Positions 6,282 through 63,370 of a stretch of DNA of 64,000 bases are shown piece after piece. Each line of letters starts with the position of its first letter. The stretch's first letter is position 1. Both the position numbers and the translations under genes were made by a program. Origin of the DNA: Pocillopora verrucosa (Eukaryota); contig NC_089313.1 of assembly GCF_036669915.1 (NCBI RefSeq), forward strand, positions 5,177,331 to 5,241,330, read 5' to 3'. The notes beneath the pieces are model-generated. The model ran no database searches, was not told the origin of the DNA, and was given only the letters and a program-made list of their open reading frames with translations.

Positions 6282-7081
6282 GTCAAGTCGCCGACGGTTC
6301 AACTTGCCAACGCCAAGCGTTTAGAAAATGTTTTTTGTTCACCAGCATAGCCTGGTATTAAGATGGACCAAATGTAGACACCTTCAAAAGTGAGCTACCT
6401 AAGTGTGAATCTAGAATGACACTGGTTGTGACACAATAACTTGTTCACGTTCAAAGATATTGGTCATTGGTGATGTTCACCTTACTTTCTTCACCTTACT
6501 TTCTTCACCTTGAGATCCTTATAAGCTTTGTTGGAAATAAAAAGAATTTTTTTTTTTACTAAAGATCTTGTTTAGAAAGCCAATTTTTTTTTCAATCTGA
6601 CAGATTATGATGAGTCTTTAAAGAGTTGTTGTCACACAATAACTAAATCGTTCGTGTCTAAAGCTTTTTTGGTCATTGGCAATGTTCACCTTGCTTTATT
6701 TGCCTTGAGATCCTAATAAAATTTGTTGGAAATAAAAAGAATTGTTTTTTACTAAATATCTTGTCTAGAAAGCCAAGTTTTCTTAAAAAATCTGATTGAT
6801 TGACAAGATGAGTCTTTACAGTGTTGTTGTCAAACAATAACTTGTTCATGGCTGAATCTTTTATAGTCATTGGCAATGTTTACCTTGCTTTATTCACCAT
6901 TAGATCCTTATAAACTTTGTTGGAAGAAAAAAAATAGTTTTTTTACGAAAGATCTTTTACTTTTCTACATGTTTAACTTCTCTTGAGTTGTACTGGATTG
7001 AAGACCAACTCGCCAATGTCTCTACTCGATTTTATACGTTGGTGAGTTGGCATTGGCAAGTTAAACCATCAGCGACTTGAC
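6282..7081. mobile_element. Non-autonomous TIR DNA element (about 800 bp), roughly 36-bp TIRs flanking three internal tandem repeats of about 205 bp
   Basis: Left end GTCAAGTCGCCGACGGTTCAACTTGCCAACGCCAA. Right end is the reverse complement of …TTGGCATTGGCAAGTTAAACCATCAGCGACTTGAC. Three internal units at about 6425-6640, 6640-6845 and 6845-7000 share tgtYacacaataactNNttcRtg…ttggtcattggcaatgttcaccttgctttattcacc…tccttataaRctttgttggaaataaaaagaat. The TSD is not clear. The insertion abuts a subfamily A MITE. Confidence 0.6.
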
Positions 7082-19654: not shown

Positions 19655-19990
19655 AAATACTATAGGGCTGAATTTTTTACAGGCCTTTTTTTCATTCTTG
19701 CTTAAGTAGAATTCATTGATGTGAAGATTGCTTCCATGTTCATTTCTTAAACTCCAGTTCATAGAAATGATTTTCATAAATTCACAGTCATTGATTCATC
19801 TCTTCCTGGGTTTATTACGAACCAACAAAATGACTAGCTCCCAGTTGGCTTGTTAGCTCAGTTGGTAGAGCTCTGCACTGGTATTGCAGACGTCATGGGT
19901 TCAAATCCTGCACTAGCCTGAGTTTTTTCAGGCCTTTTTATCTCTACTACCTAAGAAGTGTTCATTACTGCAAAGATTGCTTTCATATTC
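19655..19990 (+). mobile_element. tRNA-derived SINE-like unit(s), tandem partial duplication, in KMT5A intron 2
   Basis: The string …ctgaRtttttt(a)caggcctttttt…aagattgcttYcatRttcatttcttaaact… occurs twice (19661-19770 and 19918-19990). The second copy is preceded by the tRNA-like head. Confidence 0.5.
19847..19918 (+). tRNA. tRNA-like sequence (anticodon loop CTGGTAT, i.e. GGT/Thr-like). Probably a pseudo-tRNA or SINE head rather than a working tRNA.
   Basis: GGCTTGTTAGCTCAGTTGGTAGAGC…GGTTCAAATCC has Pol III A box (TAGCTCAGTTGG) and B box (GGTTCAAATCC). The anticodon stem is perfect (CTGCA/TGCAG). The acceptor stem has a T-T mismatch and the T-stem is poor (ATGGG/CCTGC). A TTTTTT tract follows immediately. 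The 3' flank is duplicated upstream at about 19661-19770. Confidence 0.4.
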
Positions 19991-21991: not shown

Positions 21992-22122
21992 ATGGAATCG
22001 AAAAGCATCGACAGAGAAGCCGTCTTAAAATCACTTGTCCTGAACAATTCAACCACAGATGGCCAGCCTAGAAAGAGAAAAAGACTTGACAATTTATCTG
22101 CCGAAGAAAGGGCTCTTCGAAG
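21992..22122 (+). CDS. XBP1: XBP1 exon 1
   Basis: Encodes MESKSIDREAVLKSLVLNNSTTDGQPRKRKRLDNLSAEERALR(R). Donor ag|gtgggc. Human: …KRQRLTHLSPEEKALRR. Confidence 0.88.
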
Positions 22123-22240: not shown

Positions 22241-22337
22241 AAAACTGAAGAACCGAGTCGCAGCTCAAACTGCTCGTGACAGAAAGAAAGCACGAATGAC
22301 AGAACTAGAAGAACTGGTTGCGCAGTTAGAGAAAGAG
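22241..22337 (+). CDS. XBP1: XBP1 exon 2 (bZIP basic region)
   Basis: Acceptor tctag|, donor gag|gtaata. Encodes KLKNRVAAQTARDRKKARMTELEELVAQLEKE, near-identical to human KLKNRVAAQTARDRKKARMSELEQQVVDLEEE. Confidence 0.93.
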
Positions 22338-22924: not shown

Positions 22925-23217
22925 AACAGAACCCTTCGCTTGGATAATGAAAGTTTGAGGAAACACTCGGAAGCTGTAACAATCGAAAACTCGGAGTTAA
23001 GAGTCCGACTTGGTCTTACACCCCCCGTGTCACCAGCTCCAGTGTCTACAAATTACACACCAACCTCAGAAGCCAGTCCAGATACTAAATACAGTCCAGT
23101 TGTGATCAAGAAAGAAGCAGAATATAACGAGTATGCATCACTCTCAGTTTCTCAGCAGCAGGAACGCCTGATTCTGTTTCTTTCTCTGATCACGACTTGG
23201 ATGATGATCAACAACAG
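22925..23217 (+). CDS. XBP1: XBP1 exon 3 (leucine zipper). Holds the IRE1-spliced unconventional intron and the XBP1u hydrophobic tail in the unspliced frame.
   Basis: Acceptor cttacag|. Encodes NRTLRLDNESLRKHSEAVTIENSELRVRLGL… (human ENQKLLLENQLLREKTHGLVVENQELRQRLGM). The unspliced frame ends …SQQQERLILFLSLITTWMMINNR and then a stop in the intron. The +1 frame from about 23156 reads (S)AAGTPDSVSFSDHDLDDDQQQ and ends in phase 0 at the donor cag|gtaatg. Confidence 0.85.
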
Positions 23218-23891
23218 GTAATGGTGATATTTTTTTGATTTTGTGGGTAAAATTTATTTTTAAACCTTAAGAGAGTGAAAGACTTGATAGTGAAATTAGT
23301 GGGATAATGTCTGAGGTGCTGAACTTTTTACTCACTTAGTTGTTATCCACTGAAAATTCACTTTAACTTAGAAATGTGGCAATATCCTCATTTGACGTTA
23401 CTAGGTAACGCTGGTCATGTAATGGATTTTTGTTGATGAGCAGAACAGCTGGTCCATCACTGGTGGGATTTGAAGATGTCTGTTCAGCTGTTTGAATTTA
23501 TTATCAGTAATTCTGTAAATTTTTTACACCAATTTTTTTTTCATTATGAATGGCTTTCTAAATGGTCTTCTACCCTTTCACTCCCAAGAGTGACCAAAAA
23601 ATACTTTCTCCTCACAACATCAATACAACATCAAACAGACGAGAAACGGGAATATGAAATGATATCAATTAGGGGGTTGTCATTTGTTTCAACACTTAAT
23701 TATCAAAACCAAACCTATAAATATTTTCTGGCAGACAGTAAGTATAATTACTAAAGAAATCTTGGGAGTGAATGGGTCAAGAGTATGGGAGGTTGAATTA
23801 AAAAAACAATGAGATGGAATGTGTATCATAAGCATGATAAAAGTAACCTTTGATAGGCATGATTTTAACCCATGATTTGGTGTCTTTTCAG

Positions 23892-24251
23892 CATGACATG
23901 GATTTTGGCCTTTTTGAACTTGATGGGGAAGGAGACTGCCTCACACTTATTCAGCCCAAACAAGAAGCCACAGCAGCCCCAACCTGCTGTCAACTCAACA
24001 CCAACCCAGATGCAAAAGAGGAAGTCAGAACCACAGATGGCACAGTCCCAGAATCAAGCAGCAGTGACATAACAGTAGCAGACTTAGTTGGAATGGAATG
24101 CGAGTCTTTGGACTCTTTGGATGATCTCTGGAACCTGAAAGATTTCTCCAAGGAGTTCAAAGACCTAAATGCGGAACCTGAAATGTTAGGGTGTGAAATG
24201 TGGGAGGAGACCTTCACAGAAGTATTGTTCCCATCACTTTTGGTTGTCTGA
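23892..24251 (+). CDS. XBP1: XBP1 exon 4, XBP1s-frame C-terminal activation domain with stop
   Basis: Acceptor ttttcag|. Ends …CEMWEETFTEVLFPSLLVV*, matching human XBP1s …HSWEDTFANELFPQLISV*. It is in frame with exon 3 only after removing an intron whose length is 2 mod 3 (for example 26 nt). Confidence 0.85.
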   Translation, partial: HDMDFGLFELDGEGDCLTLIQPKQEATAAPTCCQLNTNPDAKEEVRTTDGTVPESSSSDITVADLVGMECESLDSLDDLWNLKDFSKEFKDLNAEPEMLGCEMWEETFTEVLFPSLLVV

Positions 24252-62739: not shown

Positions 62740-63370
62740 ATAATTTTTTGTTGTAATCTGATCGGTGCGAGCAACTTACGGTGCAATCTGATTGATACGG
62801 GCTACATATCCGGCGCATGTCACAAGTGCAGGCAACATACATTACGTAATCTTATTGGTGCGAGCAGAATATCTGCGCAGTTTGATCGGTGCGAGTAGCA
62901 TACCCGGAGCAATCTGATTGGTACGAGTAACTTGCCCGGCGCAATCTAATCGGTACTAACAGCATACCCTGCACAATCTGATTGGTGTGAGCAGCATACA
63001 CAGCGCAACCTGATTGGTGCGAGCAGAATATCTGCGCAGTTTGATCGTGCGAGTAGCATACCCGGAGCAATCTGATTGGTACTAACAGCATACCCTGCGC
63101 AATCTAATTGGTGCGAGCAGCATACACGGCGCAACCTAATTGGTTCCAATAGCATATCTAGCGCAATCTAATTGGTGCGAGTGGCATACACGGCGCGATA
63201 TGATTGGTGTCAGGAGCATACCCAGCGCAATCTGATTGGTGAAAGCAACATACCCTGAGAAATTTGATTGGAACAAGCAGCATACCCGACGTTACATATT
63301 GGTGCCATCAGCATACCTGGCGCAATCTGATTGGCGCGAGCTACATACGCCACTGAATCTTATTGGTGAC
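62740..63370. repeat. Minisatellite, about 20 tandem units of 31-32 bp (consensus caatctgattggtgcgagcagcatacMcggcg), about 400 bp upstream of the FKBP2-like gene
   Basis: Direct reading. Each unit has ATTGG (CCAAT on the other strand). On the minus strand CCAAT is followed 9 nt later by CCGKG. Confidence 0.9.

Follow-up and report, generated by a model that had tools for sequence, protein, structure and literature searches.

A predicted 20-nt IRE1 intron with an off-consensus donor loop in the XBP1 gene of the coral Pocillopora verrucosa

The window analysed here is a 64-kb stretch of Pocillopora verrucosa DNA (64,000 nucleotides (nt) of contig NC_089313.1); its G+C content is about 36%, and its GT-AG introns are short. 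It contains a four-exon gene (Table 1) whose third coding exon very probably carries a 20-nt intron excised by IRE1, at positions 23136-23155. The product of the four-exon model, 233 amino acids (aa) long, shows 100% identity along its whole length to LOC131776066 (P0001), deposited as an 'uncharacterized protein' of P. verrucosa, on which the Pfam profiles bZIP_1 and bZIP_2 were matched. After P0001, the best homologues are XBP1 of Oculina, Montipora, Acropora, Nematostella, Exaiptasia, Hydra and vertebrates. Because the model is identical to P0001 and the next homologues, from corals to mammals, are XBP1, the gene is P. verrucosa XBP1, the name already given to it in an earlier note made from the sequence of this DNA. 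The annotated P. verrucosa protein is its unspliced form, XBP1u.

Table 1. Features of the XBP1 locus. Positions count from the first base of the window; here and in the text a slash within a loop or junction sequence marks the cut. MFE, minimum free energy.
Feature	Position	Strand	Sequence or content	Basis
Coding exon 1	21992..22122	+	ATG at 21992; MESKSIDREAV...ERALRR	Model versus P0001, 100% over 233 aa
Coding exon 2	22241..22337	+	bZIP basic region RKLKNRVAAQTARDRKKARM...	Pfam bZIP_1/bZIP_2 on P0001
Coding exon 3	22925..23217	+	End of leucine zipper, IRE1 bifurcated stem-loop (predicted), start of HR2-like (unspliced) or acidic (spliced) segment	
Outer closing stem S1, 5' strand	23109..23123	+	AGAAAGAAGCAGAAU	MFE fold, pair probabilities 0.87-1.0; covariation
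Donor hairpin S2	23129..23143 (loop 23133-23139)	+	GAGU[AUG/CAUC]ACUC, predicted cut after G23135	MFE fold; RF04247 5' loop
Predicted IRE1-excised intron, 20 nt	23136..23155	+	CAUCACUCUCAGUUUCUCAG	Frame restoration; cnidarian homologues; 20-nt deletion in hydrozoan-like transcript pair; ungapped anemone alignment
Acceptor hairpin S3	23147..23165 (loop 23153-23159)	+	GUUUCU[CAG/CAGC]AGGAAC, predicted cut after G23155	Mainly comparative
Outer closing stem S1, 3' strand	23171..23185	+	AUUCUGUUUCUUUCU	MFE fold; covariation
Conventional GT-AG intron, exon 3/exon 4	23218..23891	+	AGG TAA (Arg, stop) at its start	
Coding exon 4	23892..24251	+	XBP1u stop TAA 24070-24072; XBP1s stop TGA 24249-24251, end ...WEETFTEVLFPSLLVV	

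Exon 3 carries both reading frames expected of an XBP1 switch, and the translations confirm what the earlier note had described. The bZIP frame reads ...SQQQERLILFLSLITTWMMINN and the +2 frame ...SAAGTPDSVSFSDHDLDDDQQQ. The latter leaves exon 3 exactly at 23217 and enters exon 4 in phase 0, as the note had also seen, to end in the conserved C-terminus ...WEETFTEVLFPSLLVV; the open reading frame (ORF) for the spliced form, XBP1s, in exon 4 is kept in many corals, as found by a homology search with a C-terminal query. Frame algebra agrees with the note that the excised intron must be 2 mod 3 in length. A stop at 23125-23127 in the +2 frame confines the acceptor to the stretch between 23128 and 23217.

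With normal splicing, the bZIP frame yields XBP1u of 233 aa (...INNSMTWILAFLNLMGKET...AAVT), which equals the annotated protein. Excising 23136-23155 (20 nt, which is 2 mod 3) joins the bZIP domain to the conserved C-terminus in a 286-aa XBP1s that reads ...KKEAEYNEY-AAG-TPDSVSFSDHDLDDDQQQHDMDFG...WEETFTEVLFPSLLVV, with ...EY-AAG-TPDSVSF... at the junction. In XBP1u, an HR2-like hydrophobic segment, ERLILFLSLITTWMMINNSMTWILAFLNLM, was recognized by inspection downstream of the splice site and aligns with bovine and chicken HR2. The short tail that had been proposed for XBP1u, with its end ...MMINNR, does not stand; it results from reading AGG TAA across the exon 3 donor (cag/gtaa) into the conventional intron.

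The RNA around the predicted intron has the twin-hairpin organization of Hac1/Xbp1 introns, namely two 7-nt loops on a closing stem. In the MFE fold of 23105-23185 (z = -3.4), a 15-bp outer stem (S1) and a donor hairpin (S2) are present; in the complete bifurcated structure, S1 closes both this hairpin and an acceptor hairpin (S3). The twin 7-nt loops, which the note had advised to seek by folding the flanks, are AUGCAUC and CAGCAGC. The intron ends were placed by the IRE1 convention, in which the cut falls after the third base of each 7-nt loop. The acceptor, cag/cagcagg at 23153-23162 with the cut after 23155, is the 3' site that had been picked out from the sequence, and its loop, CAG/CAGC, is a canonical CNG/CNGN. 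The donor, aug/cauc with the cut after 23135, had been missed. The segment 23136-23155 begins with CA and is 20 nt long, unlike a spliceosomal intron, whose termini are GT-AG or AT-AC and whose length suits the spliceosome. The predicted spliced junction reads ...GAGUAUG/CAGCAGGAAC in the RNA and would appear in junction reads as ...AACGAGUAUG/CAGCAGGAACGCC.

The earlier note had found no canonical site 26 nt upstream of this acceptor, and indeed acg/agta there has two closing pairs and no G/C. It had left the intron as non-canonical in length or in sequence; it is so in both, with 20 nt instead of 26 and a donor loop AUG/CAUC instead of CNG/CNGN. The 26-nt expectation was a vertebrate-specific assumption, and the puzzle arose because this length was taken for granted. 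Two other donors had been offered instead, aag/caga for a 38-nt intron (23118-23155) and cag/ttgt for a 56-nt intron (23100-23155), both of them 2 mod 3 in length. Neither fits the fold: AAGCAGA, inside the outer stem, has no closing pairs, and CAGUUGU, upstream of it, has three and no G/C, against four closing pairs for AUGCAUC. Either intron would remove part of the covarying S1 along with the conserved residues VVIKKEAEYNEY, which no homologue's spliced product lacks, and the motif is not conserved (AAAUAGA in Actinostola). We regard a 38- or 56-nt intron as next to impossible.

The note had also called for XBP1 of related species. We compared DNA or transcripts from a pocilloporid-like coral (L003/L004), Montipora (L005), Acropora (L006), two unidentified hexacoral-like transcripts (L007 and L009), Nematostella (L008), Actinostola (L002), the octocoral Dendronephthya (L010), Hydra (L011) and the scyphozoan Rhopilema (L012). 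A scan for twin hairpins (two NNG/CNNN loops of 7 nt, stems of at least 4 bp, spacing 15-30 nt) returned exactly one site in each of these loci, at the homologous position. The G/C sites are 20 nt apart in all of them except Rhopilema, where the distance is 23 nt. Acceptor loops follow C[AU]G/C[AC]G[CA] and are canonical in all 12 cnidarian sequences, including a hydrozoan-like transcript (L013) described below. Donor loops read CAG/CAGC in Nematostella, UUG/CAGC in Actinostola, AUG/CAGA in Dendronephthya, AUG/CCUC in L009, AUG/CAUU in Hydra, ACG/CAUC in L013 and AUG/CAUC in Pocillopora, L003, Montipora, Acropora, L007 and Rhopilema. Both C(-3) and G(+3) are missing from the donors of Pocillopora, Montipora, Acropora, L003, L007, L009, Hydra, Rhopilema and L013. 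Deleting the predicted intron restored the ...WEE[ST]F..LFPSLL C-terminus in 10 of 10 species tested. The earlier description of a switch conserved with a twist is apt, as the architecture extends across Cnidaria and the donor loop is off consensus.

The stems change in sequence and keep their pairing, as in the donor stems GAGU with ACUC, GAGC with GCUC, UAAGC with GCUUA, CUGAAU with AUUCAG and CUGAGC with GCUUAG. In an alignment of 11 sequences, 94.5% of cells are paired, against 50-57% when the partners are slid by 1-3 columns, and two-sided changes occur in 11 of 25 pairs, against 0-4 in the slid controls. By stem, 92% of cells are paired in S1 (two-sided changes in 7 of 15 pairs), 100% in S2 (compensatory changes in 3 of 4 pairs) and 97% in S3. 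A covariance model built from seven non-scleractinian cnidarian sequences matches 23105-23191 with 94.9 bits (E ~5e-21, a rough value), much of which is sequence homology; its next unrelated match has 15.5 bits. The element is also the most conserved stretch of exon 3, with 95-99% identity to Acropora and Montipora against 69-72% upstream, and runs of 51-67 nt identical to these corals cover both loops. Such a structure might be a by-product of dual coding and shared ancestry instead of a selected fold, given that the region codes in two frames, that the 11 sequences are related and that the shuffle control ignores phylogeny. The slid-partner controls, which retain this relatedness, and the stem changes argue against it, as does the fit of the architecture to an independently curated family, RF04247, and we consider a by-product very unlikely.

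Transcripts of other cnidarians support the excision of exactly 20 nt. A transcript from a Nematostella-like anemone (P0018/L001) is already spliced, reading ...GAGUCAG/CAGCAGAAGAAC..., and aligns without gaps to the coral sequence minus 23136-23155 as well as to the genomic DNA of Nematostella and Actinostola minus their 20 nt. The coral junction, EY-AAG-TP, parallels that of the anemone protein (ES-AA-EEL) and pig XBP1(S). A second case comes from two proteins, P0030 (262 aa) and P0121 (336 aa), which share an identical stretch of 156 residues at the start, differ from there on and group by their N-terminus with XBP1 of Hydra and Clytia. An unspliced transcript of the same gene from a JGI metatranscriptome (L013) reads CUGAGC[ACG/CAUC]GCUUAGAGUUUCU[CUG/CCGC]AGAAAC, with the donor stem formed by CUGAGC and GCUUAG. 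Deleting exactly 20 nt from it reproduces the independently assembled P0121 over its full length, bar four substitutions in other parts of the protein. P0121 results from no other length of deletion, and the start of the deletion is fixed within a 5-nt window that contains the predicted bonds. Because L013 minus 20 nt gives P0121, a donor loop with A(-3) and U(+3) is spliced in vivo in a hydrozoan-like cnidarian; the Pocillopora loop differs from this one solely at the free -2 position.

These pairs also bear on whether the coral intron could have a length more typical of metazoans, 23 or 26 nt, with other bounds, for example 23136-23158 (AUG/CAUC...CAGCAG/CAGG), 23133-23155 or 23130-23155. 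All three candidates are in frame and give plausible proteins, and the CAG repeat at 23153-23161 offers a second CAG/CAG register. The shifted loops, however, are not closed (no closing pairs for agt/atgc, two for acg/agta), and CAGCAGG would fall outside a 7-nt loop. The anthozoan homologues all have their G/C sites 20 nt apart, the L013/P0121 pair needs exactly 20 nt, and the spliced anemone mRNA is ungapped only against the 20-nt-deleted coral sequence. An intron of 23 or 26 nt is thus highly improbable, and we retain the 20-nt intron.

The IRE1 intron is absent from some deposited gene models that nevertheless extend to the XBP1s C-terminus, apparently through invented conventional introns that produce hybrids of the unspliced and spliced proteins. 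The Actinostola model P0014 (locus L002) crosses HR2 and then jumps frame, and P0066, a Rhopilema-like entry of EukProt, reads EYASFRN/SEDINII. Both look like annotation artefacts of the unconventional intron. Hydrozoans apparently have two XBP1 paralogue groups, encoded on different chromosomes in Hydra (P0028 and P0055 of Hydra vulgaris; related proteins P0033, P0040, P0061 and P0092). P0061 (341 aa) resembles the spliced product of the second group, with the junction NEHA/VESH, which suggests that both hydrozoan paralogues carry an IRE1 intron.

Rfam 15 contains a family for such elements, RF04247, 'bZIP non canonical Hac1/Xbp1 intron' (PMC11701678). On 23095-23200 this family gives the best Rfam match, covering 23112-23182 with E = 0.11; in its alignment, AUGCAUC and CAGCAGC fall under the consensus loops (CuGCAGC and CUGCAGc) and S1 under the outer stem. 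The match emerges only when about 100 nt are searched; RF04247 was not returned at E<=10 on 600 nt, nor at the gathering score on the whole window. All cnidarian elements scored fall below the gathering score of 41, with 36.2 bits in Nematostella, 33.8 in Actinostola, 24.1 in Dendronephthya and 19.8 in Pocillopora. The RF04247 model, built around 23- and 26-nt spacing, under-detects 20-nt animal introns. On both strands of the window (128 kb), the twin-hairpin scan has a single match, at the XBP1 site. We dropped this uniqueness as an argument for significance: mononucleotide-shuffled windows contain 1.2 twins each, 0.5 of them with a length of 2 mod 3, and 68% hold at least one. Since shuffled windows yield about as many twins, the motif alone is not significant; its placement in the interval of about 90 nt required for the frame switch is, and so are the comparative results.

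Several observations weigh against a functional 20-nt intron at this site. The complete bifurcated fold lies 3.1 kcal/mol above the MFE, and S3 has an ensemble probability of only about 0.17 in the single sequence, which is why its support is mainly comparative. The donor loop AUG/CAUC, with A at -3 and U at +3, keeps G(-1) and C(+1) of CNG/CNGN and departs from the rest. Of the three positions that yeast Ire1 is reported to require, it breaks two (PMC6037481), and it is also off the metazoan consensus C(C/U)G/CAGC (PMC4687415). As GCA occurs at both junctions, cuts jointly shifted by -1 to +2 would yield the identical product, and the exact scissile bonds are therefore assigned by analogy. 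The RF04247 score is below the gathering threshold, and the nucleotide conservation could largely stem from dual coding instead of RNA structure. Eight XBP1s proteins that P. verrucosa would make with introns of 20, 23, 26, 38 or 56 nt, in several registers, were looked up by exact sequence, as were the XBP1s predicted for seven other cnidarians, and none of them was found. A homology search with the XBP1s-specific C-terminal half returned last-exon ORFs only and no junction-spanning scleractinian ORF.

These results could mean that scleractinians have a weakened or defunct switch, the donor being poorly cut or uncut and XBP1s being rare or made by another route, such as frameshifting or a different nuclease. 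No spliced scleractinian transcript appears in very large collections, positions -3 and +3 of the donor are off consensus, and the arrest peptide of XBP1u is lost as well (see below). Against this, purifying selection clearly acts across corals on the C-terminal frame used only by XBP1s, robust and complex corals have an almost invariant element, and a loop of the type A-N-G/C-A-U-C is spliced in the hydrozoan-like species. Assemblers mostly retain the major unspliced isoform, so that absence from assemblies is weak evidence. A defunct switch appears improbable to us, and an active one, with 23136-23155 as the IRE1 intron, is preferred.

The 20-nt length has precedents outside animals. Introns of 20 nt occur in hacA/hac1 of filamentous fungi and in OsbZIP50 of rice, and introns of 23 nt in Drosophila and Caenorhabditis elegans, with loops reported as canonical. 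Cnidaria contain the same two classes of HAC1/bZIP60-type introns, 20 nt in anthozoans and Hydra and 23 nt in Rhopilema. Published values are 23 nt for Arabidopsis and 26 nt for human (PMC11077094). The sea-anemone introns (Nematostella, L008; Actinostola, L002; L001/P0018) are close to that of the coral, sharing the 20 nt, the outer stem, the acceptor CAG/CAGC and collinear exons; they differ in having G at +3 of the donor (CAG/CAGC or UUG/CAGC), an RF04247 score of 34-36 bits and an XBP1u that keeps the arrest peptide.

Vertebrate XBP1, with its 26-nt intron, shares with the coral the host gene, the twin 7-nt loops on a closing stem, the G/C scissile position and a frame shift that exchanges a hydrophobic tail for an activating C-terminus, with Ala-Ala-Gly at the junction as in mammals. 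The lengths differ, as does the donor: metazoan XBP1 junctions are described as C(C/U)G/CAGC in a bifurcated stem-loop (Peschek et al. 2015, PMC4687415). An exon 'zipper' of the type described by Peschek was sought in the predicted spliced coral fold, where S1 is kept and no convincing extension was found, unlike in vertebrates.

The specificity of known IRE1 enzymes varies. Yeast Ire1 is reported to need CNG/CNGN or CNG/ANGN in a strict 7-nt loop, whereas Schizosaccharomyces pombe Ire1 needs only UG/C (PMC6037481). Sites of mammalian IRE1alpha read CUG/CAG, with strict conservation of the G that precedes the cut and some sites one base off consensus (PMC2952871). The coral donor contains UG/C, and this minimal motif is all that the promiscuous S. 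pombe enzyme, which acts in regulated IRE1-dependent decay (RIDD), needs. In contrast to S. pombe, the coral site lies in a strict 7-nt loop, has a canonical acceptor partner and is predicted to be ligated and not to lead to decay. The hydrozoan-like donor has CG/C, and U at -2 is therefore not required. CrbZIP1 of Chlamydomonas has an incomplete donor loop and a longer flanking stem, the CxGxxG motif being stated as otherwise conserved in animals (PMC11077094). The coral resembles CrbZIP1 in its incomplete donor CxGxxG, its twin stem-loops and its long flanking stem (15 bp); the alga is a green alga with another bZIP gene, and its donor keeps CxG, while the coral loses the C too.

Because the donor-loop consensus and the Rfam threshold fail while the architecture and function of the family are present, the coral element is a variant of the Hac1/Xbp1 intron class and not a plain member. 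Of CNG/CNGN, the donor keeps only G(-1) and C(+1); at this site, cnidarian IRE1 therefore most likely accepts either A or U in position -3 as well as U in position +3, with a strictly canonical acceptor. A literature search that did not cover the survey of Hooks & Griffiths-Jones (2011) found no description of cnidarian or coral XBP1 splice sites, and an earlier description is possible.

XBP1u differs between scleractinians and other cnidarians at its C-terminus. In human XBP1u, the residues critical for ribosome arrest are W249-H252, W256 and P258 (PMC6624018). A W-G-[KR]-x-Q-x-x-W-x-P-L-M-like C-terminus was found in XBP1u of vertebrates, anemones, L009, an octocoral and medusozoans. The arrest peptide W-G-R/K-H-Q-x-x-W-x-P-L-M is absent from scleractinian XBP1u, which ends earlier, in ...AAVT, in seven of seven cases. 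In the XBP1u frame of P. verrucosa (24070-24135), the stop TAA at 24070-24072 precedes two TAG codons, at 24076-24078 and 24085-24087. Beyond these three stops lies a decayed remnant, LEWNASLWTLWMISGT, which corresponds to TWWGKHQNTWNPLMRS of Nematostella, each followed by a stop; Montipora and Acropora are alike in this. The HR2-like hydrophobic segment has been kept. The loss of the peptide suggests that scleractinians may have lost pausing-assisted targeting of XBP1u mRNA to the endoplasmic reticulum (ER).

In the mechanism that we propose, the S1 stem with its two 7-nt-loop hairpins would be the IRE1 substrate element of XBP1 mRNA. Under ER stress, IRE1 would cut after G23135 and after G23155, releasing the intron, and the exons, kept together by the outer stem, would be ligated. 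The frame shift of +2 would replace XBP1u and its HR2-like tail by XBP1s, the active transcription factor. We infer IRE1 as the nuclease, induction by stress and the occurrence of the reaction in Pocillopora itself.

Other features of the window are unrelated to this element. A tRNA-Thr gene with anticodon GGT lies at 19847-19919 on the forward strand, about 2 kb upstream of the XBP1 start codon (Rfam tRNA, 52.4 bits; ARAGORN). GGU is, to our knowledge, not a usual eukaryotic Thr anticodon, and the gene could be a tRNA-derived repeat or have a mis-assigned isotype. Tandem repeats occur at 62755-63348 (32-nt unit, 18.8 copies, higher-order periods of 126 and 158 nt), near the G+C-richer end of the window, at 6490-6956 (194-nt unit, 2.4 copies) and at 399-555 (52-nt unit, 3 copies).

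In the unfolded protein response, a core element of heat-stress biology in corals, no arm is more conserved than the IRE1-XBP1 switch. The exact coordinates of the predicted 20-nt deletion would allow XBP1 splicing to be read from existing coral RNA-seq as a stress marker. Pipelines set for 26 nt or for CNG/CNG would miss the coral intron, and it is below the threshold of the Rfam model. The A(-3)/U(+3) donor loop, conserved across Cnidaria with covarying stems, contradicts the stated conservation of CxGxxG in animals (PMC11077094), and with the cnidarian donor loops nature supplies a series of substrates on which the true requirements of IRE1 could be defined. If confirmed, the loss of the arrest peptide raises the question of how XBP1u mRNA reaches the ER in corals. 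It is conceivable, though we would on balance doubt it, that cnidarian IRE1 needs only G/C in a 7-nt donor loop beside a canonical acceptor and that the coral switch was rewired again by the loss of the arrest peptide. If this were true, substrate recognition and ER recruitment of coral XBP1 mRNA would depart from the vertebrate paradigm; recruitment might use HR2 alone, the long S1 stem or a slow cut at the donor by which the threshold of the response is set, with a direct bearing on how corals sense heat and ER stress.

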